Source: Mobula hypostoma
Taxonomy: Eukaryota
Assembly: GCF_963921235.1 (NCBI RefSeq)
Contig: NC_086107.1
Span: forward strand, 95,544,001-95,608,000
Reading direction: 5' to 3'
DNA length: 64,000 nt
This document shows, piece after piece, positions 1 through 60,401 of the stretch. Made by a program: the position numbers and the translations under genes. Numbering within the stretch: the first letter of the stretch is position 1; each line of letters opens with the position of its first letter. Under the pieces are notes generated by a model. That model saw only the letters and a program-made list of their open reading frames with translations, was not told the origin of the DNA and made no database searches.

Positions 1-523
1 ACATCTGTTGGACGATGCTGAGGATGTTCTACGAGTCTGTGGTGGCCAGTGCTATCAAGTTTGCTGTTGTGTGCTTGGGCAGCAGGCTGAGGGTAGCAGA
101 TGCCAACAGAATCAAGAAACTCATTCGTAAGGCCGGTGATGTTGTGGGGATGGAACTGGACTCTCTCACGGTGGTGTCTGAAAAGAGGATGCTGTCTAAG
201 TTGCATGCCATCTTGGTCAATGTCTCCCATCCACTACATAATGTACTGGTTGGGCACAGGAGTACATTCAGGCAGAGACTCATTCCACTGAGATGCAGCA
301 CAGAGCATCATAGGAAGTCATTCCTGCCTGTGGCCATCAAACTTTACAACTCCTCCCTTGGAGGGTCAGACACCCTGAGCCGATAGGCTCATAATTTACT
401 GGCATAATTTACATATTACTATTTAACTATTTATGGTTCTATTACTATTTATTATTTATGGTGCAACTGTAATGAAAACCAATTTCCCCCGGGATCAATA
501 AAGTATGACGACTACTACTACTA
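1..523 (+). mobile_element. 3' end of a Rex1/Babar-like LINE
   Basis: ORF 15..386 has the typical RT C-terminus (FYESVVASAI..SHPLH..RKSFLPVAIKLYN); 3' end AATAAA followed by an (ACT)n tail. Confidence 0.8.
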
Positions 524-524
524 G

Positions 525-1090
525 AAGCACTAGCAAATCTGCCTGCTATGATATTGGTCCCCCTTCAGTTCAGGTGCAACCTGTCCTTACTGTACAAGTT
601 ACCTCAGTCCAGTGGTCCCAAAATCTGATTTGTTCTCTCCCCCCACACAGCAATTTTACAGCTGTATCCTTCCATTCTTACCTTCATTAGGACATGGCCC
701 TGGAGATAATTCAGAAATACTACCTTTGTGGTCCTGCTTTTTAACTTCTTCCCTAGCATCAATATTCGTTCTGCAGGAACTCTGCCCTTTCTTTACCTTT
801 GTCATTGTGTCAGCATCATGCACCACTTCTGGCCTTCTCATTGAGGTCTTGAGAATAGTCTGTAGCCACTCTGATATCCTGAACCCTGGCCCAGGGAAGG
901 CACCATACCACTCCAGAGACTCTTGAGGCCACGGGATCTCTTTTCCACCTCCATAACTATTAAGTCCCATATCACTTTAGTCTTGCCTGCGTTCACACTT
1001 CTCTGCTGAGCCTCAGAGCCGATATTGATGCACAGACCTGGCGACTGCTTCATTCTCTTGAATGGGCATTATCCCACTCCCAACCCCCAG
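525..1090 (-). mobile_element. Degenerate CR1 ORF1 (SGNH esterase) fragment
   Basis: Minus-strand translation (FPGPGFRISEWLQTILK..RPEVVH) resembles the LPGARVRDISDRVQDILK..EPEVLVH segment of the intact ORF1 at 56461. Confidence 0.55.
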
Positions 1091-1106
1091 TTTCCAAAAC
1101 AATATA

Positions 1107-2172
1107 CAGTGGATTCTAGTTAATTGGGACATATCAGGGTCTATATATTTTGGCCTAATTAAACAGCTACCCCAATTAGCCAAAGTTTAATGGAATAGAT
1201 TGAGTAACAAATTGTGTATTTAAATGAAATACAGAACAAATTAGAATGCCACCAATAATGCTATAAAGCTGTGTATTTATTTGTGATAGTTTTCAATGGA
1301 GAAATTCATCCATTGTGCGCTACTGTGTTCTTTTGGTTGACTGTAAATGAACAAAACCAGAGCAGACACCTAGGATAATTTCAAACAAAAGAAAATCTGC
1401 GGATGCTGGAAATCTGAGCAATACACACAAAATGCTGGAGAAACTCAGTAGGCCAGGCAGCATCTAGGAAAAGAGTAAAGTTGACGTTTTGGCCAAACTC
1501 CTTCAGCAGGACAAGAGAAAAAAATCTTATCTCCTTGGTGCTGCTCTCCCCCTTTCCCTCTTCCATGGCTTTCTGTCTCTTTTACCAATTTACTTCCCAG
1601 CTCTTTACTTCATCCCCTCCCCCTTCAGGTTTCACCTATCACCTTGTGTTTCTCTCTCCCCTCCCTCCACCTTTTAAATCTACTCCTCAGCTTTTTTTCT
1701 CCAGTCCTGCTAAGGGTTTCGAACTAAAATGTCGACTGTACTGTCTTCCTAGGTGCTTCCTGGCCTTCTGAGTTTCTCCAACATTTTGTGTGTGTTACCT
1801 AAGGTAATATTTTTGCTTAGTGTCAAATCTTTAATGGCATCTTGGCAAGGATCTAAAGTTTTTTAAAGTCAAAATAAAAAACAAAATTGTCAAAAAAACA
1901 CTGCTTTTTGAATTGGCATCTGTCGAGCCAAATGGATAACAACACAAGCACATGCAACTGACACTATTTAAAAAATGGTCGTTCTAAGCACGTTATAATT
2001 TCCAAAGGCCACATAAGTGCACACAACTGTTCCGCAATAGTCTCCTGCTCCAATTAAGTGACTTAATGTCCCAAATAAACAAAGGGAATCCCACCAATTT
2101 TATGGGCTCGATTTTTGTTCTTCAAGAGCTGTCCCAAATAAGTGACTGCCCCAATTAACCGGAATCCTCTTG
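1107..2172. mobile_element. Tigger/pogo-like (Tc1-mariner) non-autonomous DNA transposon, interrupted by a mini-Penelope
   Basis: Imperfect TIRs CAGTGGATTCTAGTTAATTGGG and CCCAATTAACCGGAATCCTCTTG; TA on both sides. Confidence 0.7.
1383..1797. mobile_element. Penelope-derived fold-back mini-element (inverted terminal repeat copies)
   Basis: Left part is the reverse complement of the Penelope 3' terminus and right part is the sense 3' UTR; decayed hammerhead motifs; degenerate TSD acctaggataat / acctaaggtaat. Confidence 0.7.
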
Positions 2173-5092
2173 TACTTGATAATTCCTTTTTGAGCTGCAC
2201 ATTAAGAATCACTACTCTCTGGCACCATCTTCATGAGATGTTGAGTCTATTTTTGGATTGTATCCACTACTCTGCATTCAGATTGCTCTATCAAATCATG
2301 ATGCAACCAATCAGGATGCTTTCAACAGTATGTCTGTGAAAGAAAGTAAAGACTCTGGAGTGCTTTCCTTGTGATTGCATCTATGTGTTGTGCCCATGTG
2401 TCCTATCTTGCTGCTGTACGCTGACTCATCATCTGTGATTCATCTAACAACAGTGGTGGTGTTTGGGAAATTTGTATATGGCATTGCTTAGCCACAAAGT
2501 TACATGTGTATGGAGAGTAAGGCAGTGGTCGAAGCACACAGCTTTAAAGTACACTTACAAGTATGTTGATGGTCAGTGTGGAGGAGATGTTGTTACCAGT
2601 CTGCATTGATTAAGGTCTCTTAAAATAGAGGTCAAGGATTCAATTGCAGAAGGGGGCTATCTATGAGAGAATAGTTTTGAATGGCGAGACCCAGATCTTG
2701 AAGATTATTGGATGGAGATTTTGTTTTGAACATTAAGTTGTAGTCAGTTAAATCAATCACTGAACACATACCTGGTGTGTGTTACATTGTACAGATGGTG
2801 CAGAGCAGAGAAATTGTATCTGCTATTGACCTGTTGGGGTAGTAGGCAAACTGAAGTGGATTCAAGTCATTTCTGAGGCAGGAGTTGATTAGTACCAAAA
2901 CATAACCTCTTGAAGCTGCCAGTGCTAGCAGTGATAGTCATTAAGGCAAGTCACCATGCTCATCTTGGGCACTGGTGCAATAGATAACTCTGAAGCAGAT
3001 GAGAATGTTAGACTGCAGAAGCAAGAGGTTGAATGGATCCATGAATACTCAGGCTATTTAGTCCACACTGATCTTTAGTACATGTCTCAATGTCCTATCA
3101 GGACTAGGCATCTTTCATGAGTTCACTCAGAGCGTTGGTCTCAGAGACTTGAGAGGAGAGGGCTCAGTGGATGTGTCATATTTCTCTTGAACAGAGTGTG
3201 TGTAGAAGACATTGAGCTCATCTGTAAGTGTGGGATTATTGCCCTTATTTTAAAGCGGACGTAAGGAGTAAATATTTTTTATATAGCTTGGTTGATATCT
3301 GGAATATGCTATCAGAGAAGGTGGGGGAATCATTGAACATACTGTTCCTCCACATTGCTAAGAATCTTGTCCTTAACCTTGTATACAAACTTAAAGTTCG
3401 AGCTTCCACTTCACACTTTTCCAGGTTGAACTCCATCTGCCACTTCTCAGCTCAGATCTGCATTCTGTTAATTTTGTGTTGTAACCTATGACAGTCTCCT
3501 ATCCGCACCACCCTTTGAGACATCTGAGACCTTCTTTATAAAAATCATTTATTTAAAAAAAACACAGAGCAGGGCTCCCAGAACAGATCCTGATGCAACC
3601 AATTGGTCGTGAACCTTCAGGCTGAATACACTCTACTACCACCCTCTTCCTTCTATGAGCAAGCCATTCCTGAATCAACACAGCCAAGTTTCTGGGGATC
3701 CCATGCTTCCTGACCTTTTGAATGAGACTACCATGGGGAACTTTGTCAAATGTATTACTATATACACTACCTCCAGTGTTCTACCTTCATCAGTATATTT
3801 TGTTGCTTTCTCGAAAAAGTCAATTAGACTCGTGATCTACCCCTTACACTGCCATGTTGACTATCCTAATCAGACTATGCTTCTCAAATGCTTGTAAATC
3901 GTGTCTCTAAGAAACCTCTCTAGTTGTTTTCTCACAACTGAGGTAAGAATCGCTGGTCTATAATTCCTAGGATTATCCCTGTTATCTTTCTTGATCAAAG
4001 GAATAACTCTTGCCATTCTCCAGACCTCTAGTACTACTACTTTCACCAGCGCTGATGCAAAGATCATCATCAATGATCCAGCAGTCTCTTCCCTTGCTTC
4101 CCATGTAAACCTGGGGTACAGCCCATCTGGCCCTGGGACTTATCTATCCTAATGTTTTTCAAAAGTTCCAACTTATCCCCTTTAACCTCAGCTTGTACCA
4201 ACTCATTTTCCTGTTCTATACTGACCTTACATTTTCAAGGTCCATTCAATGGTGACTGCTGAAGCAAAGTATGCATTAAAGACCTTTCCTACGTCCTGCA
4301 ACTGCAGGCACATTTCCTCTTTCATGCCTGATTGTTTGTACTGTCACTAGTCATTTTCCTATCCTTCAAATGCGTGTAGAATGCCCTGGAGTTTTTCTTA
4401 ATATTACTTTCCAAGGCCTTCTCATGTCCCCTTCTAGCTCTCTTAAGGAAGTGCAGGTGGTCCTGTGGGAATCTGGAGTCAGGTGAGTTTTCAATGTTCT
4501 TTTGGAAATCAGGATTGCTAAAAATTGTCTAGTTGAAAAAGTGGATCTGTTGGAGGACAAAAAATTAGGTACTGGCATATCTGGGAAAGGGAGGTCCAGA
4601 GCCCTGGGAGGAAAAGGTTGAGAGTCTGAAGGTGTTGATATATAGTGGAGATCTAAAGCATTGAGGGAAAACTATAGGAAGAAGTGGTGGCCGCAAGATC
4701 CTTGCTGGGTTAAACTGGAAGCCTGGAAAGCATGTGGATGAAATGGCAGCAAAGGCAAAAACAGAGACAAGGATAGTTGGCTGTAGTAGTCCTGGGAAAG
4801 AACTTGGTCAAAGGCCTAGAGAGAAAAAGAAAGCCCAGAGCATCATGATGTAATTCACCTTCCTCTAAAGGTGAATGTGCATTAAGTTTATATTGACAAA
4901 TTTCTCTCTTCTGAATGGAATTAAAGAAGAAGATGTAGCAAGTAATTCTGAGTACTTGCAAACTAAATCCTATCAAGAGATTTTTGTTCACTAATTATTA
5001 ACTCATTTGTATGTTATTTGTTTGGATTTTCACTATTCAAATCTAATGAAAATTGTGAGTTCAGTTTGAAAAAAAGCTTTTCCATACCACAG

Positions 5093-5189: not shown

Positions 5190-7295
5190 GTAGGAATGAT
5201 CAATCAAACATAATTAAAGAAATTCACCAGAAATGTATGTTGGTAAATCCCAGAACTAAAATACTGTACACAACCTATTCAAATTTAAGGTGAAAGTATA
5301 CAGTTAACGGTAGGACCCTTAACAGCATTATTGTACAGAGGGATCTTGGAGCCCAGGTCCATGGCTCCTAATAGTAGCCATCCTAGTGGATAGCATGGTA
5401 AAGAAGATCTATGACATAATTTGCTGCATTCATTAGGACACTGAGTATTAGTGTAAGTCAAGTTGCAGCTACATTAAATTTTGATTAGGCCATATTTGGA
5501 GCATTATTTGTAATTTTGTTGCTCCATTACAGGAAGAATCTGAAGGCTTTGGAAAGGATATTTAAAAGGTTTACCAGGTTGTTTTCTAGATTAGAAGGTA
5601 GGAGCTGTAAGGAGAGGTTGAACATATGTGAGTTGTTTTCTCTGGAGGGTTGCAGACTGAGGGCAGACCCAATAAAATTTATAAGATGATAAAAATCAAA
5701 GGTAGGATATACAGGATCTTTCCTTTCCAGGGAAGAAATGTTATATACATGCACTTAAAGGTAGTTGACTAGAGTGAGGATAGGACTGGTCAAAGATAAG
5801 AGGAAATGTGCCTGGAGTTAGAGGAAGTAGGGGAGATCCTTAATAAATACTTTGCTTCAGTATTCACCAGTGAAAGGGACCTTAATGTTTGTGAGGACAT
5901 TATAAAATAGGCTGATATGCTAGAGCATGTTGACGTTAGGAAAGAGGATATGCAAAAACACTTAGAAAACATTAGGATAGACAAACCCCAGGATTGGACA
6001 GGGTATATCCCAGGTTACCAAGGGAAGCGAGAGGGAAGAGATTGCTATGCACTAGCAATTATCTTTGTGCCCTCCTTGGCCACAGAGTAGTACCAGATGA
6101 TTGGAGGTAGCAACTATTATTTCTTTATTTAAGAAAGAGAGTAGGGATAGCCCTGGGAATTATAGACTAGTGGATCTAGTTGTAGGTAAATTATTGGAGA
6201 AGATTTTTAGAGACAGGATTTATAAGCATTTGGAGTAGAGTAGTCTGATTAAGGGTAGTCAACTTGGCTTTTTGAGGTGTCGGTCATGCCTTACGAGTCT
6301 GATTGAATTATTTGGTGATGTGAAAAAGTGAATTTATGAAGATAAATTGAAGATTGAGTTCAAGACCCATGAGGTAATATTGCAGCTCTATAAAATCCTG
6401 GTTAGACCACACTTGCAATATTGTGCTTAGTACTGGTATCTTCATTATAGCTGATGATCTCTATTATGTAAAAGGATGGCAGTAAAGTTGGCATAATCAG
6501 TAAATTTGAGATTACACTAAAATGGGTCATATAGTGGACTCTGGGATAGGTTACCAAAGATGCCAACAGGATTTAGGTTGACAGAAATAGCAGTGCCTAG
6601 AGGCGAAGTTCCTGGGAAATTGAACAGTGAGGCGTGATTGTCCAAAGCTAGGGGACAAGGGATTAGGGTGAGAGGGGAAATATTTAAAAGAGACCTGAGG
6701 TGGTGAAGATGGTGAGTATATGGAATAAACTGCTAAAGGAAGTGGTTGGCACAGGTACAATTGTATAACTTGGATAGGTACATGGAAGGAAGGGACTTTA
6801 AGGATATGGGCTGAAGGGCCTGTATCTGTGCTGAATTGTTCTATAACTCTATTCTAGAGAACGATTGCTAAGAAGACTACTGGAGAGGTCTCTTATTGTT
6901 GGCGATTTTTGCTACAAGTGAACAGATCTAGCCTTCCTAATTTTGTATTACAGTGGCTTACAATTTTCAGATCTGCATTTTGTAACTTAACATTGAACTG
7001 TACAGTACAGGAACTAGTTCTTCGGCCCATAATATTGTGAAACTTGCTTCCTGTTCTGCATTACTATAATCTTCAGTTGTAGCGATGTGCTACACACAGA
7101 GCTAGAAATAACGACACGCAGTCTGTAAGTTGCATTCGAGACTCGTTTATTCAAACCTCGCGGCACTGGCTTTTAAGCAGTTCCCTTCCAGCCCTCTCCG
7201 GGTGGAATGACGTCAGAGGTGCATTACAAAAGTCTCTCCCCACGCATGAGCTGTTTTGTGAGCCGGTTCGCTTGTGTAGAAAGTGGGTCACCTCA

Positions 7296-7320
7296 TAACA
7301 CCCCCCCCCCCCGCCCCCCG
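7296..7320 (-). promoter_or_regulatory. Gypsy polypurine tract
   Basis: G-rich run on the minus strand just upstream of the 3' LTR. Confidence 0.8.
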
Positions 7321-10300
7321 AACCGGCGATACACCCCAAATGTCCACAGTCTGGATCAGTCTTTGTTTGGGCGGTTTGCCTCTGTGCTGCGGTGCCTGAA
7401 CCTCGACTGGCTGCGCCAAGTCCACATGGGCTGGTTTGTGTTGGTCCACCGTGAAAACCACCTCTTTCACCCCAATGTCCAGAACGTAAGTGGACCCGTT
7501 GTTACTGATCACCTTGAATGGCCCCTCGTACTGCCGCTGTAGCGGTGCTTGGTGTGCGCCCCTTCGTACGAATACAAACTTACAGTTCTGCAGGTCTTTG
7601 GGTACGCAGGTCGGGATCTGTCCGTGCTGTGAAGTCGGTATGGGGGCCAGGTTGCTGAGCCTTTCGCGTAGTCTGTCCAGGACTGCTGCGGGTTCTTCCT
7701 CTTGCCCCCTTGAGGCTGGTATGAACTCTCCTGGGAAGACCAGGGGTGTGCCGTACACCAGCTCAGCCGACGAGGTGTGCAGATCCTCTTTGGGTGCTGT
7801 GCGGATTCCAAGCAGTACCCTGGGAAGCTCGTCCACCTAGTCAGGCCCTTTCAGGTGGGCCATGAGAGCCGACTTTAAGTGACGGTAGAAGCATTCCACT
7901 GGTCCGTTCCACTGTGGGTGGTAGGCAGTTGTGTGGTGTAATTGTGTTCCCAACAGGCTGGCCACAGCCGACCACAGGCTGGAGGTGAACTGGGCGCCTC
8001 TGTCGGAGGTAATGTGGGCTGGTATCCCGAAGCGTGCTACCCAGTTTGCAATCAGTGCTCGAGCGCAGGAATCGGCGGTGGTGTCGGTGAGTGGGACCGC
8101 CTTTGGCCATCTCGTGAACCGGTCCATCATAGTTAGGAGGAACCGCGCTCCTGGCGACACTGGCAGGGGCCCCACGATATCCACATGAATGTCGTCGAAC
8201 CTCCGGCAGTTGGGTTCAAACCGTTGCGGTGGGGCTTTGGTGTGCTGCTGCACCTTGGCTGTTTGGCACTGAGTGCACGTTTTGGCCCATTCACTGACCT
8301 GTTTGTGAAGTCCGTGCCACACGAACTTGCTGGAGACCATCCGGACGGTTGTCCTGATAGATGGGTGCGCCAAGCCGTGTATGGAGTCGAAAACTCACCG
8401 CCGCCAGGCTGCCGGGACGATGGGGCGAGGTTGGCCGGTAGCCACGTCACACAGGAGGGTCTTCTCACCTGGGCCTATGAGGAAGTCTTGCAGCTGCAAA
8501 CCCGAGACTGCGGTCCTGTAGCTGGGCATCTTGTCATCTGCCTGCTGCGCCTCTGCCAGTGCTGCATAGTTCACCCCCTGGGACAGGGCCTGGATAGCTG
8601 GTCTGGAGAGTGTGTCCGCCACGACGTTGTCCTTTCCCGAGACATGCTGGATGTCCGTCGTGTGCTCAGAGATGTAGGACAGATGTCGCTGCTGGCGGGC
8701 CAACCAGGGATCGGACACCTTCGTGAATGCGAAGGTCAACGGTTTGTGGTCCGTGAACGCAGTGAACGGCCTGCACCTAAGAAGTACCTGAAATGCCGGA
8801 TTGCCAGATATAGTGCCAACAGCTCCCGGTCGAAGGCACTGTACTTGAGTTCGGGTGGCCGTAGGTGCCTGCTGAAGAATGCCAGGGGTTGCCAGTGCCC
8901 CTCGATGAGTTGCTCCAACATTCCACCGACTGCTGTGTTGGATGCGTCCACTGTGAGGGCGGTTGGAACGTCCGTTCTGGGGTGCACCAGCATCGCAGCA
9001 TCTGCCAAGGCTTCCTTGGCTTTAATGAAAGTGGCCGCGGCCTCTTCGTCCCAAGTAATGTCCCTTGCCTTTATCTGACATCAGGGTGAACAAAGGGCGC
9101 ATGATACGGGCTGCTGAGGGGAGGAAGCGATAGTAGAAGTTCATCATACCAAAGAACTCCTGCAGACCTTTGACTGTGTTGGGCCGGGCGAAGTGGCGGA
9201 TTGCGTCTACCTTGGCGGGCAGAGGTTTTGCCCTGTCTTTGGTAATCCTGTGGCCCAGGAAGTCGATGGTGTCGAGTCCAAACTGATATTTGGCCGGGTT
9301 GATCGTGAGGCCAGAATCACTCAGGCGGGAGTAGAGCTGGCGGAGGTGGGCCAGATGCTCCTGACGATTACTGCTGGCTATGAGGATGTTGTCCAAATAG
9401 ATGAACGCGAAGTCCAGGTCGCGTCCCACCGCATCCATTAGTCGTTGGAACGTCTGTGTGGCATTTTTCAGGCTGAACGGCATTCGGAGGAGTTCGAACA
9501 GGCAGAACGGGGTGATGAGTGCTGTTTTGGGAATGTATTCAGGGTGTACCAGAATTTGATGGTAACCCTGGACGAGGTCTACATTGGAAAAGATGCTTGC
9601 CCCATGCAGGTTTGCTGCAAAGTCCTGTATGTGCAGCACGGGGTAGCGGTCTGGAGTTATAACCTCGTTCATGGTCTCCAGCCCCCAGCTGCTTTGGGCA
9701 CCATGTGCAAGGGGGAAGGCCCATGGTCTGTCGGACCGCCGTACGATCCCCAATTCCTCCATCCTCTTGAACTCCTTCGCCAGGCGGAGCTTGTCCGGGG
9801 GGAGCCTTCGTGCGCGGGCATGGAGGGGTGGTCCCTGGGTCGGAATGTGGTGCCATACTCCATGTCTGGGCATGGCTGCCATGAACTGCGGTGCCAGACC
9901 GATGGAAAGTCCACCAGGATTCTGGTGAATTCGTTGTCAGACAGCGTGATGGAGTCCAGGTGTGGGGCTGGCAACTTGGCTTCACCCAGGGAGAACATCT
10001 GGAAAGTCTTGGCATGGACCAGTCTTTTCCCTTGCAAGTCGACCAGCAGGCTGTGGGCTCGCAAGAAATCCGCCCCCAGAAGTGGTTGGGCCACGGCGGC
10101 CGGTGTGACGTCCCATGTGAACTGGCTGGCGCCGAACTGTAGCTGCACTGTGCGGGTGCCGTAGGTCCGAATTATGCTGCCGTTTGCGGCCCTCGGTGGG
10201 TCCCGTCGCCCTGTTGCGGGTGTCATACCCCGTTGGGGGTAAAACACTGATCTCCGCTCCAGTGTCGACCAAGAAGCGGTGTCCCAACTGTTTGTCCCAG

Positions 10301-50594: not shown

Positions 50595-53500
50595 TGTCAA
50601 GTCAGATTTCTTTTTCTTCTTTGAACATGTGCAGCTTCCCCACTTGAAAGAGATTGAATGTGTCTATCGGAAGTTTTTTAACTGGATTCCACTCAATGAC
50701 CAAACAACTTTTCCTTTTTCCTCCTTTTATTTTTCACAAGTGCAGCAGTTTGATAGTTCCATTAGTTCCATCAACCATTAGATATTAGTCATTAGTCATT
50801 AGGTGAAAAAACTGGCTGCCTCTCCGGACTTTGTAGACGGATTCGATCTGCACAGTCTTCGCTCCCTAATAGACCGTTATGTTTTCAAACCGAGTGACCC
50901 TTCCCGAAGGTTCCCGAGCTCTTCTTAAACCTCGCGCCATTTCCCAGAAGTGCTTGTGCGTGATGATCCCCGTGGTGTGAAGCTAACGCTAACCCAAAAC
51001 GCAGTGACAGCAGTGCTCTTTTCCATGAAACAGTCTCTCAAGTTATTTAAAGTTCAGCATCTTACCGCAGATTCCAACGCTGCACCTGGACTGCCGCTGT
51101 GATGCTGCTGGGTCCCCCCATTGTTCCAGGCAGAAGCAGCACTCAGGTAGTGGGTTCCATCCGGTCTATCAGTGGATTCTTGCTATTACTTTTAAATTTT
51201 ATTTTCTTTTGCCTCTAGGTCCCAATACTTTCTAGAAAGTCCAGTTTGACCTGACACCTCCCACTCAATCTTCCCGTGGAAACACTGGAGAGATTGCCAG
51301 CTTCAAAGGCAAACTTGGTGGTCCCAGTTCGGTGTTCTTATGATGTATTGTTGACTTGACTTTCCATCTGTTCCTCAGCAGGTAGCAAGACAACCAGCCG
51401 CCTGACGTCCCTGTGAAGGATGGTGGCTTGGATCCTGTCATTTTTCCCATCAGAGATTGGATGCCTGTTGTTACTTTGGGAGCTTATGTCACAGGAACAC
51501 TGTAGGTTGGGAAGATCCCGACGTTGACGTCCCTCAAGATGCCTTTGCTGTCTGGATTAGTATTGATAACTCTGCGCTAATACTATCCCACTTCCACCAC
51601 TCTAGGAAGTCCCGGTTGGTGCTTGAAGTACCTGACTCCTGGAGCTTGATGCCATCCTGTTTGTTTGGTGGAAGTTGCTCTGGGACTGTGCTGGTGAGCT
51701 CCTCGTACTTTACAGCAGCCGCTGTCATTGACCTTGCAAAATGTGTCTTGGACATGTAGGCCGACACAGACAGCTCCTAAAAGAGATCAGGATGTGCAGC
51801 TCCGACCGTCTTCCCCAGTGGTCCGTCCCACAGCACGAAGTCTCCAACAGCTCTGGTTCCCTGAGGCGCTAGCTCACCTTCTCTATGGCTTATGAGTAAA
51901 TTTATTTCTCTGAGTCTCACAAGTTCATCAAACGGTGTGTCTGGGAAGAATTTCTGCATTTGCTTCGGTGTCACATATTTGTGGACATTTGCAATGCTGT
52001 CTAGTCCATAACAAACCAATTGGTGTGATTTGAGAGTGCCCTTGGGAGTGTTTACTCAATTTTTAGAAGGTACCGCTTTGTCTCCACCTGAACCTTCATC
52101 CCCCCAACTCCATGGACGACGAGAGTGATTTCCTCACTTCTGAGGTTCAGTCTGCTTGCAACCTTGTGGGTTATATAATTGGTGTCTGAAGCCAAGTCAA
52201 TTAACGTCCCGATTTTTTGCCTAGCTTTAGCTGTGACCTTGAGAAGCATCATAATCACTGGCAGCTCTTGCAATCCACTTTCCACCAGAAGGCCCAGTTT
52301 ATCTTTCACAGTGCTGAAAGCTCTGGATGCAGTGTTTGAAAATACATCGCGACATTGTTTGGCCGATTCTGGCGAAAGTTTGCTGAAGAACTCCTCTTGA
52401 AGAGATCCTCTGAATATTTCTTCCTGCTTTTATCCTCCTCTGGACCAAATCTGCTCTTTTTCTGACCTGCGCTGCTTTTCTTTATTTTAGCATTGGGTCA
52501 CAGATAGTAATGATTTTCAGGAGTATGCTCATCCTTGCAGTCTTGGTTTTTACACAGATAGGCGGGATTGCAGTATGAACTGTCATCATTAACCTCGAGA
52601 CACCTCTTGCATGCCCCCAACTTTCTTACTGCAGCCTTTTTCTCTGGTAGCTTTAACGCTCGAAACTGTTTGCAAAAGTAGAGCTTCCTTTTGTGCTTTC
52701 CATCATCGCAGACTACACACCTTCCATGGTCGTTGCTTGACTTGGTAGACTTGGTTCTGGCATGTCTTGGCTCAGCCCTGGTTTCTCTTCTACTTGGCTC
52801 TTCATCCCTCAGTTGCTCGAGCTGCTCATATATGCTCTCAAGCCCTTTGAGGAATTCCAAGAGACTGTCAAACTGATTATCTGGTGCCACAGCATTTTTC
52901 CTGTCAGCGACATAGACCAGCCATTCCTTTTAGAGAGTTTCTGGAAGTTTACTTTCAATTGATTTTGTCACCAGCGGATTTTTGATAGCACCCGTGTCTC
53001 CAAGGTCACTCAAGTCTTGAAGTGCCTTCTCCACAGCTTGAATTAATTCCACTATCTTCCGTGACTGATGATTTCTGACAGCTGGCATTTTCTGTAACTC
53101 TTTCACTATTTCAATAGCAATGCACGTTTGATTTCCATAGCGGTTTTCTAGAACATGAAAGATGTTGTCTGCAGTTTTAAGTAGTGAGGCGAAGGTCTCT
53201 TCTGATTTTGTCGTCAAGACTGTCCAATAGTTGAACCTTTTTCACCTCTCTTGAACCGATCGTCTCTCCCTGCCTTTGGAGTGCTTCCCAGTCCTTTCTC
53301 CACCTGTGAAAATCACATTTGCTGCCAGTAAATTTGGGAAGGGCCGTTGGTTTCAATCTGATGGCTGGTGTGGGAAAATTGGAGGAAAAGCCCAACACCG
53401 TCGGTATTAGTCTTTCAGCATCCTCCTTTCTCCTTGCCTGTATGAAGTGGGCCTTCTTGGAAACCAACTTGGGGATGTGGGGTTCGAGCCTCTTTAGGTG

Positions 53501-54869
53501 ACTCCGAAGGTCCTTCTGATCCCCTGGCGGGATCCATCCTTTCCACCGACCATGCACATCCTTTGCTGTCTTTACCAGTCCTTGCAGGTGGTTAAGCATG
53601 TAGTCATATGCCTCCTGGTTGCCATCGGGTTGTACAGCAGAGACGTTTTTACATTCATCCTCTGCTGCTTGTAGTACTGTGAACAGTTCAACATTTCCAA
53701 AGTTGGTCCAAAGAGTCTCCTGGATTAGGCTTCTGACCTCCTTTAGTTTCAACTGACACTCATTTGCTGCCTTTGCCAGGTCAGCTTTTTGCTGTTCAGT
53801 TAACACAGCTACTTCCTCTGCGTTCAGCTCCACCTCCAGTTTTGCAGTGAGTCCGGCCTCCACATCATCTTTGGCTTCCATGACTTTCTCGGCTTCTATT
53901 GTGAGTTTATTGAAACTGACTCTGAGCTCCTCTTCAGACATGTCTTTATAGGTCCTGGTAATACTGTTGACCAGACGAGAAAATAATCTTTTTGCTGTCG
54001 TTCGCTCTATCTTGAGTTGCTCAACTGATTTCCCAGTAGCTTGATCAGCCATGTTTGATTTCCTCTGCAGGCTGTTCACAGGTGAGAAGGTAAGTACAAC
54101 TTTTTAATGATGCTTTGATGTTGTTTTATCTTAACTTGATTTTCTTCCTTTTTCGGGAATCCAAGTTATTGCTGCTGCTGTTCCAGCTCAAAGCTCCCAG
54201 TTTTCAGTTTCCCGGTCAACCAGTTTTTTTCACTGTCAAGTGGGATTTCTTTTTCTTCTTTGAACATGTGCAGCTTCCCCACTTGAAAGAGATTGAATGC
54301 GTCTATCTGAAGGTTTTTTAACTGGATTCCACTCAATGACCAAACTTATTTTTCGCAAATGCAGTAGTTTGATAGTTCCATTAGTTCCATCAGCCATTAG
54401 CCATGAGCTATTAGACAATAGTCATTAGACATTAAACATTAGTCATTAGGTGAAAAAACTGGCTGCCTCTCCGGACTTCGTAGACGGATTCGACCTGTGC
54501 AGTCTCCGCTCCCTAATAGACCGTTATGTTTTCAAACTGGGTGACCCTTCCCGAGCTCTTCTTAAACCTCGCACCATTTTCCATAAGTGTCTGCATGCGA
54601 TCTAACCCAAAACGCAGTAACAGCAGTGCTCTTTTCCATGAAACAGTCTCTCAAGTTATTTAAAGTTCAGCATCTTACCGCAGATTCCAACGCTGCTCCC
54701 GGACTGCCGCTGTGATGCTGCTGGGTCCCCCCAGTGTTCCGGGCAGAAGCAGCACTCAGGCAGTGGGTTCCATCCGGTCTATCAGTGGATTCTTGCTATT
54801 ACTTTTAAATTTTATTTTCTTTTACCTCTAGGTCCCAATATTTTCTAGAAACTCTAGTTTGACTTGACA
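50595..54869 (-). mobile_element. BEL/Pao LTR retrotransposon, internally deleted (gag and protease only), decayed
   Basis: LTRs 50595-51256 and 54234-54869 (TGTCA..TGACA); possible 5-bp TSD aataa/actaa; Gag LKPTALPKFTG..W and three Cys/His knuckles; protease GTLIDLASDTNYIT; C-terminal RDVRRLVVLLPAEE; polypurine tract gggaagattgagtgggagg before the 3' LTR; RT, RNase H and integrase core absent. Confidence 0.9.
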
Positions 54870-56239
54870 ACTAACATCACATTTTCATTCAAATCAGGCA
54901 TATGCATGTGTATGATATATATTACATATAATATTTCACAAACATTGGAATTCCCAACACTGATCCTTCAAGAACTCTGGTCACACACCTCCAGTCAGAA
55001 TACTATCCCTCCAGCATGACAATCTGCCCTCTATAGCCAAGCCAAGTTGAATCCTATCTACCAAGTCTGCATGGATCACATGTACCTTAATTTTCTGAAT
55101 CTACTATAAGGAGCCTTGTCAAAAGCTTTGACATATTCTGTGTACAAAGTCTAAAGTTGTTTCCTCATTAATCAGTTATGTCACCTCTAGTTTATAAGGC
55201 AAGCTGTCCTCTGTACAAAGCCATGCTAATGTCTACAATCAAGACTGATTCAAATGCCATCTATAAATTTGCAGATGACACCACTGTAGTTGGTAAAATC
55301 TTAGATGGAGAAGGAGAGGCATAGAGAATTGAGATAGGTTGACTGGTTGAGTGGTGTTGCAACTACAACCTCACACTAGCTGATCTGTCCTGGACCCAAC
55401 ACGTTAATGTACTTATGAAGAAGCACATCAGCAGTATTACTTTGTTATTAGTTTGAGGAGATTTGGTATGTCACCAAAGACTTGCAAATTTCTGTGTGAT
55501 GTGACAGTGGAGAGTAGTCTGATTGGTTGCATCACCAATCAGAATGAGGCTCTAGTGCATAGGATCACAAAAAGCTTCCGAGACTTACAGACTCAAGCCA
55601 TTTCCTTCAGGGGCATAACCCTCTATTTCTTAAAGGACATCAGCAAGAGATGGTTCCTCAGGAAGGATGCATCAATCACTCACCATCAAGGACGTGCTCT
55701 CTTCTCACTACTACCATCAGAGAAGACATGCAGGAGCCAAAAGACCAACACTCAAGGATTCAGAAAAAAGCTTCTTCCTCTCCAGCATTAGATTTCAAAA
55801 CTATCCATGAATACTAGCTCATTATTCCATTTTTTGCACTACTTCATAATTTTTCAATTCATAATAATTTACTGTTTTTGTATTGAACTTCTGATGTAAA
55901 ACAACACATTTCACGTCATATGAGATAGTAAAAAGAAATTGATTCTGACTATCCCTACTAATTCTGTACTTTTCCAGATCCTATCCCCAAGGTGAGATCA
56001 TGAGAATGAATGGGATTTTTCAGTTTCATATCAAATGTTTAATCAGTGATGCATTATTAGTTCATGCTGACAATCACATCAACTGGCAGTTACTTACAAT
56101 GCAACAGTGTAAGTTTAATAAAACTAAAAGCATTTATTCAAAATTTCTCATTTGAGTGCTATATTTTGAGCAAAGAAAAGTACATATATTGAGATAGATG
56201 GGAAATCAAGGGACTTTTTTTTTCTCCAACGGCTTTCTG

Positions 56240-56300: not shown

Positions 56301-56460
56301 CAGAGCCTCATAGAGCGGGCAGCGTAGTTTGCGGGCGGCGGAGTGAGCCGGGAGCAGAGTGAAGACTTAAGGGCTTCGGCTCACCGGGCTTAGGCGGAAG
56401 CGGGTGAGGCGAGGAAGGTTTGACATTCATTTTCTGTTGCTATTTGAGGAGAGGGGCATT

Positions 56461-57396
56461 ATGACTGTGAGGGCAGTTTGCTGTTCTCGGTGTCGGATGT
56501 GGGAGGCCCTGGAGTCTCCAAGCCTCCCGGACGTCTACATCTGCGCCAAGTGCATCGAGATGCAGCTCCTAAGGGACCGCGTTACGGAACTGGAGCTGCA
56601 GCTCGATGACCTTCGTCTGGTCAGGGAGAGTGAGGAGGTGATAGAGAGGAGTGGAAGGCAGGTGGTCACGCCGGGGCCACGGGAGGCAGACAAGTGGGTC
56701 ACGGTTAGGAGGGGGAAGGGGAAAAGGAAGGTGATGGGGAGTACCCCGGCGGCTGTGCCCCTTAACAACAGGTACTCCTGTTTGAGTACTGTTGGGGGGG
56801 ACAGCTTACCCGGGGGAAGCGACAGTGGCCCTGCCTCCGGCACAGAGTCTGGCCCTGTAGCTCAGAAGGGTAGGGCAAGGAAGAGGAGGGCAGTTGTGAT
56901 AGGGGACTCGATAGTAAGGGGGTCAGATAGGCGATTCTGTGGACGCAGTCCAGAGACTCGGATGGTAGTTTGCCTCCCTGGTGCCAGGGTCCGGGATATT
57001 TCTGATCGTGTCCAAGATATCCTGAAGTGGGAGGGTGAAGAGCCAGAGGTCCTGGTACATATAGGTACCAATGACATAGGTAGGAAAAGGGATGAGGTCC
57101 TGAAAGGGGAATATAGGGAGCTAGGAAGGGAGTTGAGAAAAAGGACCGCAAAGGTAGTAATCTCGGGATTACTGCCTGTGCCACGCGACAGTGAGAGTAG
57201 GAATGCGATGAGGTGGAGGATAAATGCGTGGCTGAGGGATTGGAGCAGGGGGCAGGGATTCAAGTTTTTGGATCATTGGGACCTCTTTTGGCGCAGGTGT
57301 GACCTGTACAAAAAGGACGGGTTACACTTAAATCCTCGGGGGACCAATATCCTGGCAGGGAGATTAGCGGGGGCTACTGAGGTGACTTTAAACTAG
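56461..57396 (+). CDS. CR1 ORF1p: Cys zinc finger, leucine zipper and SGNH/GDSL esterase-like domain
   Basis: CSRC..CAKC, LRDRVTELELQLDDL, VIGDSIVRG, HIGTND, DGLHL; first ATG at 56461. Confidence 0.92.
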   Translation: MTVRAVCCSRCRMWEALESPSLPDVYICAKCIEMQLLRDRVTELELQLDDLRLVRESEEVIERSGRQVVTPGPREADKWVTVRRGKGKRKVMGSTPAAVPLNNRYSCLSTVGGDSLPGGSDSGPASGTESGPVAQKGRARKRRAVVIGDSIVRGSDRRFCGRSPETRMVVCLPGARVRDISDRVQDILKWEGEEPEVLVHIGTNDIGRKRDEVLKGEYRELGRELRKRTAKVVISGLLPVPRDSESRNAMRWRINAWLRDWSRGQGFKFLDHWDLFWRRCDLYKKDGLHLNPRGTNILAGRLAGATEVTLN

Positions 57397-57401
57397 AATG
57401 G

Positions 57402-60401
57402 TTGGGGGGGGGGAATCAAATTAAAGCGGCTAGGTGTGAGGAGGTTAGTTCACAACAGAGGGATGGGAACCAGTGCAGAGAGACAGAGGGGTGTAAAGTG
57501 AGCGTAGAAGCAAAAAGTACAAAGGGGAAAAGTAAAAGTGGCAGGCCGACAAATCCAGGGCAAGCATTAAAAAGGGCTAAGAGAGTTGTAAAAGAGTGCC
57601 TGAAGGCTTTATGTGTCAATGCAAGGAGCATTCGTAATAAGGTGGATGAATTGAAAGTGCAGATTGTTATTAATGATTATGATATAGTTGGGATCACAGA
57701 GACATGGCTCCAGGGTGACCAGGGATGGGAGCTCAACGTTCAGGGATATTCAATATTCAGGAGGGATAGACACGAAGGAAGGGGAGGTGGGGTGGCGTTG
57801 CTGGTTAAAAAAGAGATTAACGCAATAGAAAGGAAGGACATAAGCCGGGAAGATGTGGAATCGATATGGGTAGAGCTGCGTAACACTAAGGGGCAGAAGA
57901 CGCTGGTGGGAGTTGTGTACAGGCCACCTAACAGTAGTAGTGAGGTCGGAGATGGTATTAAACAGGAAATTAGAAATGTGTGCAATAAAGGAACAGCAGT
58001 TATAATGGGTGACTTCAATCTACATGTAGACTGGGTGAACCAAATTGGTAAAGGTGCTGAGGAAGAGGATTTCTTGGAATGTATGCGGGATGGTTTTTTG
58101 AACCAACATGTCGAGGAACCGACTAGAGAGCAGGCTATTCTGGACTGGGTTTTGAGCAATGAGGAAGGGTTAATTAGCGATCTTGTCGTGAGAGGCCCCT
58201 TGGGTAAGAGTGACCATAATATGGTGGAATTCTTCATTAACATGGAGAGTGACGTAGTTAATTCAGAAACAAAGGTTCTGAACTTAAAGAGGGGTAACTT
58301 TGAAGGTATGAGACATGAATTAGCTAAGATAGACTGGCAAATGACACTTCAAGGATTGACGGTGGATATGCAATGGCAGGCATTTAAAGGTTGCATGGAT
58401 GAACTACAACAATTGTTCATCCCAGTTTGGCAAAAGAATAAATCAAGGAAGGTAGTGCACCCGTGGCTGACAAGAGAAATTAGGGATAGTATCAATTCCA
58501 AAGAAGTAGCATACAAATTAGCCAGAGAAAGTGGCTCACCTGAGGACTGGGAGAAATTCAGAGTTCAGCAGAGGAGGACAAAGGGCTTAATTAGGAAGGG
58601 GAAAAAAGATTATGAGAGAAAACTGGCAGAGAACATAAAAACGGACTGTAAAAGCTTTTATAGATATGTAAAAAGGAAAAGACTGATAAAGACAAATGTA
58701 GGTCCCCTGCAAACAGAAACAGGTGAATTGATTATGGGGAGCAAGGACATGGCAGACCAATTGAATAATTACTTTGGTTCTGTCTTCACTAAGGAGGACA
58801 TAAATAATCTTCCAGAAATAGTAAGGGACAGAGGGTCCAGTGAGATGGAGGAACTGAGCGAAATACATGTTAGTAGGGAAGTGGTGTTAGGTAAATTGAA
58901 GGGATTGAAGGCAGATAAATCCCCAGGGCCAGATGGTCTGCATCCCAGAGTGCTTAAGGAAGTGGCCCAAGAAATAGTGGATGCATTAGTGATAATTTTT
59001 CAAAACTCGTTAGATTCTGGACTAGTTCCTGAGGATTGGAGGGTGGCTAATGTAACCCCACTTTTTAAAAAAGGAGGGAGAGAGAAACCGGGGAATTATA
59101 GGCCGGTTAGCCTAACGTCGGTGGTGGGGAAACTGCTGGAGTCAGTTATCAAGGATGTGATAACAGCACATTTGGAAAGCGGTGAAATGATCGGACAAAG
59201 TCAGCATGGATTTGTGAAAGGAAAATCATGTCTGACGAATCTCATAGAATTTTTTGAGGATGTAACTAGTAGAGTGGATAGGGGAGAACCAGTGGATGTG
59301 GTATATTTGGATTTTCAAAAGGCTTTTGACAAGGTCCCACATAGGAGATTAGTGTGCAAACTTAAAGCACACGGTATTGGGGGTAAGGTATTGGTGTGGG
59401 TGGAGAATTGGTTAGCAGACAGGAAGCAAAGAGTGGGAATAAACGGGACCTTTTCAGAATGGCAGGCGGTGACTAGTGGGGTACCGCAAGGCTCAGTGCT
59501 GGGACCCCAGTTGTTTACAATATATATTAATGACTTGGATGAGGGAATTAAATGCAGCATCTCCAAGTTTGCGGATGACACGAAGCTGGGTGGCAGTGTT
59601 AGCAGTGAGGAGGATGCTAAGAGGATGCAGGGTGACTTGGATAGGTTGGGTGAGTGGGCAAACTCATGGCAGATGCAATTTAATGTGGATAAATGTGAAG
59701 TTATCCACTTTGGTGGCAAAAATAGGAAAACAGATTATTATCTGAATGGTGGCCGATTAGGAAAAGGGGAGGTGCAACGAGACCTGGGTGTCATTATACA
59801 CCAGTCATTGAAAGTGGGCATGCAGGTACAGCAGGCGGTGAAAAAGGCGAACGGTATGCTGGCATTTATAGCGAGAGGATTCGAGTACAGGAGCAGGGAG
59901 GTACTACTGCAGTTGTACAAGGCCTTGGTGAGACCACACCTGGAGTATTGTGTGCAGTTTTGGTCCCCTAATCTGAGGAAAGACATCTTTGCCATAGAGG
60001 GAGTACAAAGAAGGTTCACCAGATTGATTCCTGGGATGGCAGGTCTTTCATATGAAGAAAGACTGGATGAACTGGGCTTGTACTCGTTGGAATTTAGAAG
60101 ATTGAGGGGGGATCTGATTGAAACGTATAAGATCCTAAAGGGATTGGACAGGCTAGATGCAGGAAGATTGTTCCCGATGTTGGGGAGGTCTAGAACGAGG
60201 GGTCACAGTTTGAGGATAGAGGGGAAGCCTTTTAGGACCGAGGTTAGGAAAAACTTCTTCACACAGAGAGTGGTGAATCTGTGGAATTCTCTGCCACAGC
60301 AAACTGTTGAGGCCAGTTCATTAGCTATGTTTAAAAGGAAGTTAGATATGGCCCTTGTGGCTACAGGGGTCAGGGGGTATGGAGGGAAGGCTGGGTTCTG
60401 A
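57402..60401 (+). CDS. CR1 ORF2p: APE endonuclease plus reverse transcriptase; no AUG at its 5' end
   Basis: NARS, ITETW, YRPP, GDFN, SDH, GVPQGSVLGP, KFADD, VRPHLEYC; the frame is open from 57381. Confidence 0.95.
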   Translation: MGGGNQIKAARCEEVSSQQRDGNQCRETEGCKVSVEAKSTKGKSKSGRPTNPGQALKRAKRVVKECLKALCVNARSIRNKVDELKVQIVINDYDIVGITETWLQGDQGWELNVQGYSIFRRDRHEGRGGGVALLVKKEINAIERKDISREDVESIWVELRNTKGQKTLVGVVYRPPNSSSEVGDGIKQEIRNVCNKGTAVIMGDFNLHVDWVNQIGKGAEEEDFLECMRDGFLNQHVEEPTREQAILDWVLSNEEGLISDLVVRGPLGKSDHNMVEFFINMESDVVNSETKVLNLKRGNFEGMRHELAKIDWQMTLQGLTVDMQWQAFKGCMDELQQLFIPVWQKNKSRKVVHPWLTREIRDSINSKEVAYKLARESGSPEDWEKFRVQQRRTKGLIRKGKKDYERKLAENIKTDCKSFYRYVKRKRLIKTNVGPLQTETGELIMGSKDMADQLNNYFGSVFTKEDINNLPEIVRDRGSSEMEELSEIHVSREVVLGKLKGLKADKSPGPDGLHPRVLKEVAQEIVDALVIIFQNSLDSGLVPEDWRVANVTPLFKKGGREKPGNYRPVSLTSVVGKLLESVIKDVITAHLESGEMIGQSQHGFVKGKSCLTNLIEFFEDVTSRVDRGEPVDVVYLDFQKAFDKVPHRRLVCKLKAHGIGGKVLVWVENWLADRKQRVGINGTFSEWQAVTSGVPQGSVLGPQLFTIYINDLDEGIKCSISKFADDTKLGGSVSSEEDAKRMQGDLDRLGEWANSWQMQFNVDKCEVIHFGGKNRKTDYYLNGGRLGKGEVQRDLGVIIHQSLKVGMQVQQAVKKANGMLAFIARGFEYRSREVLLQLYKALVRPHLEYCVQFWSPNLRKDIFAIEGVQRRFTRLIPGMAGLSYEERLDELGLYSLEFRRLRGDLIETYKILKGLDRLDAGRLFPMLGRSRTRGHSLRIEGKPFRTEVRKNFFTQRVVNLWNSLPQQTVEASSLAMFKRKLDMALVATGVRGYGGKAGF

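Follow-up and report, generated by a model that had tools for sequence, protein, structure and literature searches.

What primes minus-strand DNA synthesis in a retrotransposon whose 5' long terminal repeat (LTR) is not followed by a recognisable binding site for a host tRNA? The question is raised by a BEL/Pao element on the minus strand of a 64,000-nucleotide stretch of the Mobula hypostoma genome (NC_086107.1, positions 95,544,001 to 95,608,000), which is called the window here and to which coordinates refer unless another source is named. The best reading of the evidence set out below, held at a probability of about 0.5, is that this group of BEL/Pao elements starts minus-strand synthesis with a piece of its own RNA, in the manner of Tf1, instead of with a host tRNA.

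Pairing between the LTR and the bases that follow it

The 5' LTR of the element (54234..54869, minus strand, 636 nt) runs TGTCAAG...CTTGACA and was delimited by direct repeats, LTR-LTR alignment and exact string positions. Immediately downstream of it on the minus strand stands GTGAAAAAAACTGG, and the position at which a primer-binding site would be expected (54214..54233, minus strand) reads GTGAAAAAAACTGGTTGACC, directly after the LTR end CTTGACA and without the TGG start of a tRNA site, as a first-pass annotation of the window had stated; no TGG lies within 5 nt. That annotation, made from the sequence alone, had also drawn attention to a motif inside the LTR, GGCAGCCAGTTTTTTCAC (54450..54467, minus strand), as a candidate self-primer. 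String positions place the motif there and, in an identical copy, in the 3' LTR (50803..50820, minus strand); its 3' CAC can pair with the first three post-LTR bases, and in that pairing its 3' end falls exactly at the LTR edge. The exact complement anchored at the first post-LTR base is 9 nt long in the window copy, a length equalled in 6 of 2000 dinucleotide-preserving shuffles of the LTR, and the helix reaches 13 or more bp once one A is left unpaired; the pairing was thus found as it had been proposed.

The motif also lies upstream of a poly(A) signal, as had been claimed. A candidate AATAAA stands in the 3' LTR at 50726..50731 (minus strand), with the motif approximately 70 nt upstream of it, and its counterpart in the 5' LTR reads AAATAAG, beside an alignment gap of 21 nt against the 3' copy. 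This geometry, with the motif upstream of the poly(A) signal, is the one found in Tf1. A pairing close to the poly(A) site was considered as a candidate and rejected, as the motif is upstream of AATAAA and no hexamer precedes the motif.

The 3.48-Gb genome was searched with the LTR, which gave 211 first-look candidates, 40 of which were scored at 76-84% identity along with one partial match at 94%, and a second search with the junction as query gave 185 candidates, of which 40 were scored. The copy samples described throughout are the best-scoring matches, not all copies. From these, 35 distinct 5' junctions of the window family were collected, and the junction could be located by pattern in 34. 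The motif was recognisable in all 30 of the aligned LTR copies, and the exact anchored complement reached 13 nt in 11 of the 34 junctions and 12 nt in 2; of the others, 9 had 8-9 nt and 12 had at most 7 nt. In the 13-nt form, CCAGTTTTTTCAC of the LTR (present in both LTRs of the window copy) faces GTGAAAAAACTGG, starting at the first base after the LTR, and as read from the sequences the pairing can be extended by three further pairs (G.U, A-U, and C-G or U.G) to 16, wobbles included. For one such copy (L004), a complement of 13 nt was reached in none of 2000 dinucleotide shuffles of the LTR; under a first-order Markov model the 13-nt word is expected 4e-6 times in the LTR. The shorter complements are explained by differences in homopolymer length or by point changes, as expected in old copies, and the extra A occurs in the window copy only. 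The pairing is real and is a property of the whole family, far beyond chance.

RNA material consisted of Logan contigs from 23 runs (at most 0.23 of the words in each), and the contigs of four runs were compared with the element. Among them no position was marked at which RNA molecules start or stop. They revealed family members in three organisms; most copies were found to carry a 16-nt unit that is absent from the window copy at 54204, and an internal deletion of the window copy, described below, was found to be private to it. In most family copies the site is followed by two 16-nt tandem units (CTGGTTGACCGGGAAA and CTGGAGGACCAGGAAA), each of which can form a small hairpin. One unit is missing from the window copy (region 54214-54190), and contigs of two runs restore the 16 letters at 54204. 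Contigs of run X5, from another organism, contain a variant junction in which GTGAAAATACTG follows ...GGAGCA and the 16-nt unit occurs three times, with loose ends at window positions 54226, 54208 and 50619.

Two diverged families with the same layout

A Peptidase_A17 profile search of the genome returned 150 scored places, and further BEL/Pao elements were taken from these. Two families were examined alongside the window family, namely B2 (L063, L086 and L128; 21 junctions aligned) and B3 (L084 and L085; 19 junctions found among 22 rows). The three families are far apart, with pairwise amino acid identities of 25%, 28% and 38% between their pol domains and LTRs that could not be aligned (best E 0.046 with 7-nt words); all that the three LTRs have in common is their TG..CA ends and the motif word. 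B2 is the most abundant of the three, with 767 first-look candidates for its junction, and it occurs nested (L128); L128 was considered as a fourth family and rejected, as it proved to be B2 again.

The B2 LTR runs TGTGTTGCCC...GAACACTACA and is followed by GTGAAAAGGCGAAATC. Its motif, ATCAACAGTTTTCACC, lies approximately 124 nt before the LTR end, with TATATG 28-30 nt upstream of the motif and AGTAAA approximately 40 nt downstream. The B3 LTR ends ...GCAGTTACA, followed by GTGAAAACGTGCAGCCAAC and then the gag ATG, and its motif, TTGTAGTTTTCACGG, lies approximately 97 nt before the LTR end, with AATAAA approximately 35 nt downstream of the motif. The B3 leader is unusually short, with the gag ATG only 20 nt after the LTR, and the primer site of B3 must therefore fall within those 20 nt. 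In both B2 and B3 the LTR ends ACA, GTGAAAA comes next, and GTTTTCAC is found within the LTR, before the poly(A) signal. In all three families, then, the motif stands between a possible promoter and a poly(A) signal (AATAAA or AGTAAA), and the internal part begins with its complement.

The exact anchored complement is shorter in these two families. It measured 7 nt in 15 of the 21 B2 junctions and 8 nt in one, and 8 nt in 8 of the 19 B3 junctions, with 0 in 7; the C of CAC in B3 belongs to a CpG, and at least 6 copies read CATGG there. The 8-nt match of B3 was equalled in 50 of 2000 shuffles, and B3 reaches 11 pairs when one bulge is allowed. An 11-nt complement seen in the B3 copy L084 was rejected, as other copies show it to be the junction of a deletion of approximately 210 nt.

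A check put forward in the first-pass annotation was to look for covariation between the site and the motif in relatives whose internal part begins GTGAAAA. Between families, run lengths shift together on both sides of the helix (T6/A6 in the window family versus T4/A4 in B2 and B3), and the eighth position is T-A in the window family, G-C in B3 and unpaired in B2. The check was thus borne out in part, in the run length and at position 8; the covariation is small, amounting to a little signal, and position 8 of B2 does not take part in it.

A fourth BEL/Pao-like copy, L127, had no LTR pair within the stretch that was fetched. On its 5' side (G000:C99:2310982-2319267, plus coordinates approximately 7467-7887) there is an unrelated repeat with 5662 first-look candidates and 96-97% identity; thousands of copies at that identity indicate a young, high-copy element.

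Candidate primers for minus-strand synthesis

Self-priming of these elements would proceed in four steps. Transcription would begin at or just upstream of (C)CAG-Tn-CAC, so that the motif forms the 5' end of R; the position of the motif relative to TATA-like words and AATAAA appears compatible with the start of R. The motif would then fold back over R-U5 and pair with the GTG-An-CTGG that follows the 5' LTR, a pairing which can be seen in the sequence and in which the last C of the motif lies opposite the first post-LTR base. By analogy with Tf1, the RNase H of the element would cut after CAC, and the resulting 3' OH would be extended into U5 to give minus-strand strong-stop DNA. This DNA would end at the base after CAC, where a heptamer array begins in the window family, and would transfer to the 3' R. 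The UUUUCAC-3' core common to the three diverged families would then result from a constraint on either cutting or initiation. The primer of Tf1 is reportedly, in Levin's papers, the first 11 nt of the mRNA, and RNase H is said to be needed.

The array just mentioned is a tandem repeat of CTAATGG-like heptamers (54387..54449, minus strand, detected with TRF) that begins right after the CAC of the motif. The heptamer segment varies from 47 to 139 nt, mostly in 7-nt steps (19 of 35 copies, those in which both anchors were found), and an array is also present at the matching place in the 3' LTR. If strong-stop DNA ended at the array, out-of-register strand transfer would produce length variation of this kind, as would ordinary slippage equally.

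Self-priming accounts for exactly where the helix lies and for how long it is in the window family, for a motif at the expected start of R in three unrelated LTRs, for the missing tRNA site and, in B3, for the lack of room for any other site. The published criterion for predicting it is at least 10 bp of complementarity 0-5 bp after the LTR (PMC6317226). The window family reaches this length through the 11 junctions with 13 nt and the 2 with 12 nt among its 34, the window copy itself has 9 nt exactly and 13 with one unpaired A, and B2 and B3 fall short of it.

Several observations weigh against self-priming. Within the window family, the 13-nt windows at the motif and at the site stand at ranks 661 and 605 among 989 for conservation, which is not above the LTR background. 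Covariation between site and motif, sought within the family as the first-pass annotation had suggested, gave no useful signal, as the motif is nearly invariant and the run lengths are not clearly matched: A5 was found in 3 of 9 copies with T5 and in 4 of approximately 22 copies with T6 (hand count), with no clear association. Because the motif hardly varies, the within-family test is uninformative either way, and the two 12-nt copies, both T5/A5, are compatible with a matched change and prove nothing. The only TATA-like word of the window family (TACAAAG, in most copies) lies 23 nt before the A of CCAG, a poor fit, and all copies examined are old and broken, with nothing to indicate recent activity. 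In B2 and B3 the complements (7 nt and 8 nt) are below both the 10-11 nt of Tf1 and the published criterion, and the 7-nt match of B2, equalled in 185 of 2000 shuffles, is alone not beyond chance. Finally, tRNA-Glu(UUC), taken from its 5' end as far as C38, fits the site over 7 nt in the window family, 7 nt in B2 and 8 nt in B3 before diverging, and a primer core kept across such diverged lineages is what would more simply be expected of a host-encoded primer. The self-priming proposal of the first-pass annotation accordingly survives in part: it gains from the 13-nt anchored complement, the missing canonical site and the same layout in B2 and B3, and loses by the 7-8 nt of those two families, the lack of a within-family covariation signal and the match to tRNA-Glu.

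The rival that survives best, though it is an unlikely one, is that the helix is a long-range RNA structure with some other job, such as closing R-U5, hiding or presenting the site, dimerisation or packaging, and that the primer is another RNA. Long-range pairings in the 5' leader are used by retroviruses and by Ty elements. The helix itself is real, and in minimum-energy RNA folds of the segment from motif to site the motif closes on the site, and with it R-U5, in the window family and B3, an outcome which is favoured by cutting the sequence at the motif; helices of 7-8 bp, as in B2 and B3, also suit a structural role better than a primer role. There is, however, no structural reason for the helix to begin exactly at the first post-LTR base, with the 3' end of the motif facing U5, in three families. 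Nor was an alternative primer site found, and in B3 only the 20 nt between the LTR and the gag ATG are available for one.

Such an alternative site was sought among the host tRNAs. All three families lack a canonical tRNA site, that is a TGG in the first 5 nt after the LTR; their first TGG stands at +10 in the window family (+11 in the window copy), at +34 in B2 and at +21 in B3. A tRNA site at the +10 TGG was rejected after a genome search for a fitting tRNA-like 3' end, which found no exact place, 3 places with a single mismatch and 100 when as many as two were allowed, compared to 275 for the reversed control pattern. The TGGTT match of this site to the 3' end of tRNA-Glu was likewise set aside, its 5 nt being judged too short. 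The isotypes compared were Glu, Lys, Cys and Thr, an Rfam tRNA search in which 63 of approximately 248,000 candidates were scored having yielded Lys, Cys and Thr only, and no match was found between the post-LTR site and the Lys, Cys and Thr tRNA genes of the genome. A canonical site of the Arg or Gly type is likewise missing from the three families, as judged from the missing TGG, the Arg and Gly genes lying outside the compared set.

The remaining isotype gives rise to a less probable rival, namely that priming is by a half-tRNA, as in copia: a 5' fragment of the host tRNA-Glu(UUC), cut after C38 and so ending ...GGUUUUCAC, would anneal to GTGAAAA(C), and the LTR motif would have another role, for example as a core promoter. 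The anticodon loop of tRNA-Glu(UUC) was presumed to hold UUUUCAC, and a gene of this kind was then located by pattern search and ARAGORN. The pattern search gave 52 places compared to 23 for the control, mostly one repeated gene, and ARAGORN confirmed the gene in L087; many tRNA-Glu(UUC) genes with the anticodon arm CCTGGTTTTCACCCAGG are thus present in the genome, as judged by the pattern search. Tandem tRNA clusters were also noted, with approximately 40 tRNA-Glu(UUC)-like matches at C82:11.95-12.07 Mb and dozens of tRNA-Lys(UUU) at C90:4.02-4.33 Mb (both in G000). The complement of the 5' half is anchored at the first post-LTR base in each family (7 nt in the window family, 7 nt in B2, 8 nt in B3), and a host primer would explain why the same GTGAAAA recurs in three lineages with 25-38% pol identity; half-tRNA primers are, moreover, known or predicted for Ty1/copia lineages (PMC6317226). 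Against this, the match stops at 7-8 nt, and none of the 74 junctions (34 + 21 + 19) follows the tRNA complement any further, whereas a tRNA primer, on being copied, would be expected to draw the site back towards its own sequence. The match was also one that had been specifically looked for, and it is near chance, since a 7-mer is expected in a tRNA set with a probability of approximately 0.2 (a rough estimate for about 50 species of about 70 nt). Under half-tRNA priming it would, in addition, be mere coincidence that the LTR holds a 13-nt complement, with its expectation of 4e-6, and that the motif occurs in each of the three LTRs. The first-pass view of the site as independent of tRNA stands with regard to a canonical TGG site and to Lys, Cys and Thr, and is weakened, among the four isotypes compared, by the 7-8 nt shared with the 5' half of tRNA-Glu(UUC).

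A functionless chance resemblance in A/T-rich, decayed sequence, for which the homopolymer-rich core, the ease with which shuffles equal the B2 match and the unraised conservation within the family could be cited, is very improbable given 13 anchored nt in 11 of 34 copies of the window family, a length reached in 0 of 2000 shuffles, and the same word at the same two places in three families with otherwise unrelated LTRs. What is left of the odds beyond self-priming and these three rivals falls to something that has not been thought of.

The element, its neighbours and known priming systems

The element had been assigned to BEL/Pao in the first-pass annotation, and Pfam places it there. A gag piece of the window copy (52930..53241, minus strand) matches DUF1759, the BEL/Pao gag domain (E 2.9e-09, 37.5 bits, cut-off 25.4), and two longer family copies (L031 and L032) contain, in order, DUF1759, RVT_1, Peptidase_A17, Integrase_H2C2 and DUF5641, which is the BEL/Pao set (Peptidase_A17 being the Pao-type domain of a pol ordered RT, RNase H, integrase) and hence the basis of the assignment; the RVT_1 match in these copies, at 26.5 bits, is just below the Pfam cut-off of 29.6. 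An open frame at 53177..54103 (minus strand) holds the start of gag, with the first Met of its translation at about 54052, and gave no match in a Pfam search. The 3' LTR (50595..51256, minus strand), delimited in the same way as the 5' LTR, has the same TGTCAAG...CTTGACA ends, and a polypurine tract, GAGTGGGAGG (51257..51266, minus strand; placed by LTR alignment and string positions), abuts it on the upstream side. The 5' LTR is flanked by TTAGT (54870..54874, minus strand), the left half of a candidate target-site duplication whose partner is TTATT at 50594-50590; 4 of the 5 bases agree, and the pair may be a decayed 5-bp duplication. Of the features of BEL/Pao, the TG...CA LTR ends and the polypurine tract are accordingly present in the window element, and the short duplication of the target site is represented by this candidate pair (4/5 bases).

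The internal part of the window element is only about 3 kb long. The copy aligns to the longer L031 at 267-3616 and then at 6917-7913, from which it follows that approximately 3.3 kb of pol are missing at a junction at 51572..51575 (minus strand), where contigs of two runs also diverge (51572/51575), and this deletion is the reason that the window copy lacks most of pol. Its two LTRs are 86-96% identical over ungapped segments and differ by several indels, which indicates that the insertion is old.

A non-LTR retrotransposon adjoins the element at 56371-60401 (plus strand). Its ORF2 (57381-60401, plus strand) is open over 1006 amino acids and encodes an Exo_endo_phos endonuclease and RVT_1, and the frame before it (56371-57396, plus strand) contains a GDSL-lipase/esterase domain, a feature of CR1/L2-type elements whose ORF1 encodes an esterase.

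Among known systems, the closest likeness in layout is to Tf1 and Tf2 of Schizosaccharomyces pombe and Tj1 of S. japonicus, which have no tRNA site and in which the post-LTR bases are complementary to an upstream stretch of the LTR whose 3' end faces U5. Self-priming has been shown for Tf1 and proposed for Tj1, for which a primer drawn from the 5' LTR and a place for its cleavage have been suggested (PMC4600332). These are, however, Ty3/gypsy chromoviruses, whereas the present element is BEL/Pao (DUF1759 gag, Peptidase_A17), its start and cut are put forward on the pattern of theirs, and two of its three families have only 7-8 nt of complement. By descent it stands outside the Tf1/sushi clade of Ty3/gypsy, as its Pfam matches are those of BEL/Pao, and it may work like Tf1 all the same.

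Self-priming has been predicted in addition for the Tf1/sushi group, for Tcn1 and for the copia lineage TAR, on the criterion given above (PMC6317226). For the vertebrate sushi group, which is also found in fish genomes, and for plant Tcn1 the prediction was made, as here, from complementarity between LTR and primer-binding site alone (PMC6317226); both are again Ty3/gypsy chromoviruses, unlike the BEL/Pao element described here. The TAR lineage (Houba, Osr-1) extends the prediction, by the same criterion, beyond Ty3/gypsy (PMC6317226), and differs in being a plant Ty1/copia lineage with no sequence in common with the present element. In the half-tRNA elements of Ty1/copia, too, the site abuts the LTR and has no TGG, and the tRNA-Glu(UUC) match described above also involves a 5' half; the published sites match half-Met or half-Ile tRNAs (PMC6317226), while in the present families the match is 7-8 nt and the LTR offers a longer partner. 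Canonical BEL/Pao elements (Belpaoviridae, Semotivirus) belong to the same superfamily and likewise have TG...CA LTRs, with a polypurine tract preceding the 3' LTR; they differ in their primer site for a host tRNA (Arg or Gly), which is absent from the three families. According to the ICTV profile of Belpaoviridae, the primer is a host tRNA (Arg or Gly) and replication is "poorly understood" (PMC8742986).

The author of the first-pass annotation knew of no description of self-priming in BEL/Pao, and a literature search likewise found no report of it among what were mostly titles and the starts of abstracts, subscription papers (e.g. Frame et al. 2001, on fish BEL) lying outside its coverage. 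In two BEL/Pao papers, de la Chaux and Wagner 2011 (PMC3118150) and the Sinbad paper (PMC554778), term searches found no mention of a primer-binding site, a tRNA or priming. BEL/Pao is the least studied superfamily of LTR retrotransposons. Its tRNA priming is described by analogy (PMC8742986).

Experimental proof of self-priming has so far come only from Ty3/gypsy elements of the Tf1 type, with predictions for some plant copia elements. Self-priming in BEL/Pao, if true, would thus be a known mechanism in a new superfamily; it is plausible and the best available reading. A wider claim, which is advanced more tentatively than self-priming of the group as such, is that a branch of vertebrate BEL/Pao comprising at least three lineages has abandoned tRNA primers and self-primes with a primer ending UUUUCAC-3', recognised by RNase H or by reverse transcriptase in an RNA-RNA duplex. 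If so, this would be the first self-primer with a conserved sequence core, primers of 7-8 nt would suffice, and the conserved UUUUCAC core provides a concrete and testable handle on the specificity of the cut. BEL/Pao would become the third superfamily of LTR retrotransposons with self-priming, which would then have arisen or been kept in all three, and this would bear on the idea that hairpin priming or self-priming came before tRNA priming (PMC3601003). Such elements would be missed by annotation pipelines in which tRNA matching is the sole means of calling primer sites, and they would escape host defence by tRNA-derived fragments aimed at primer sites (PMC7472051).

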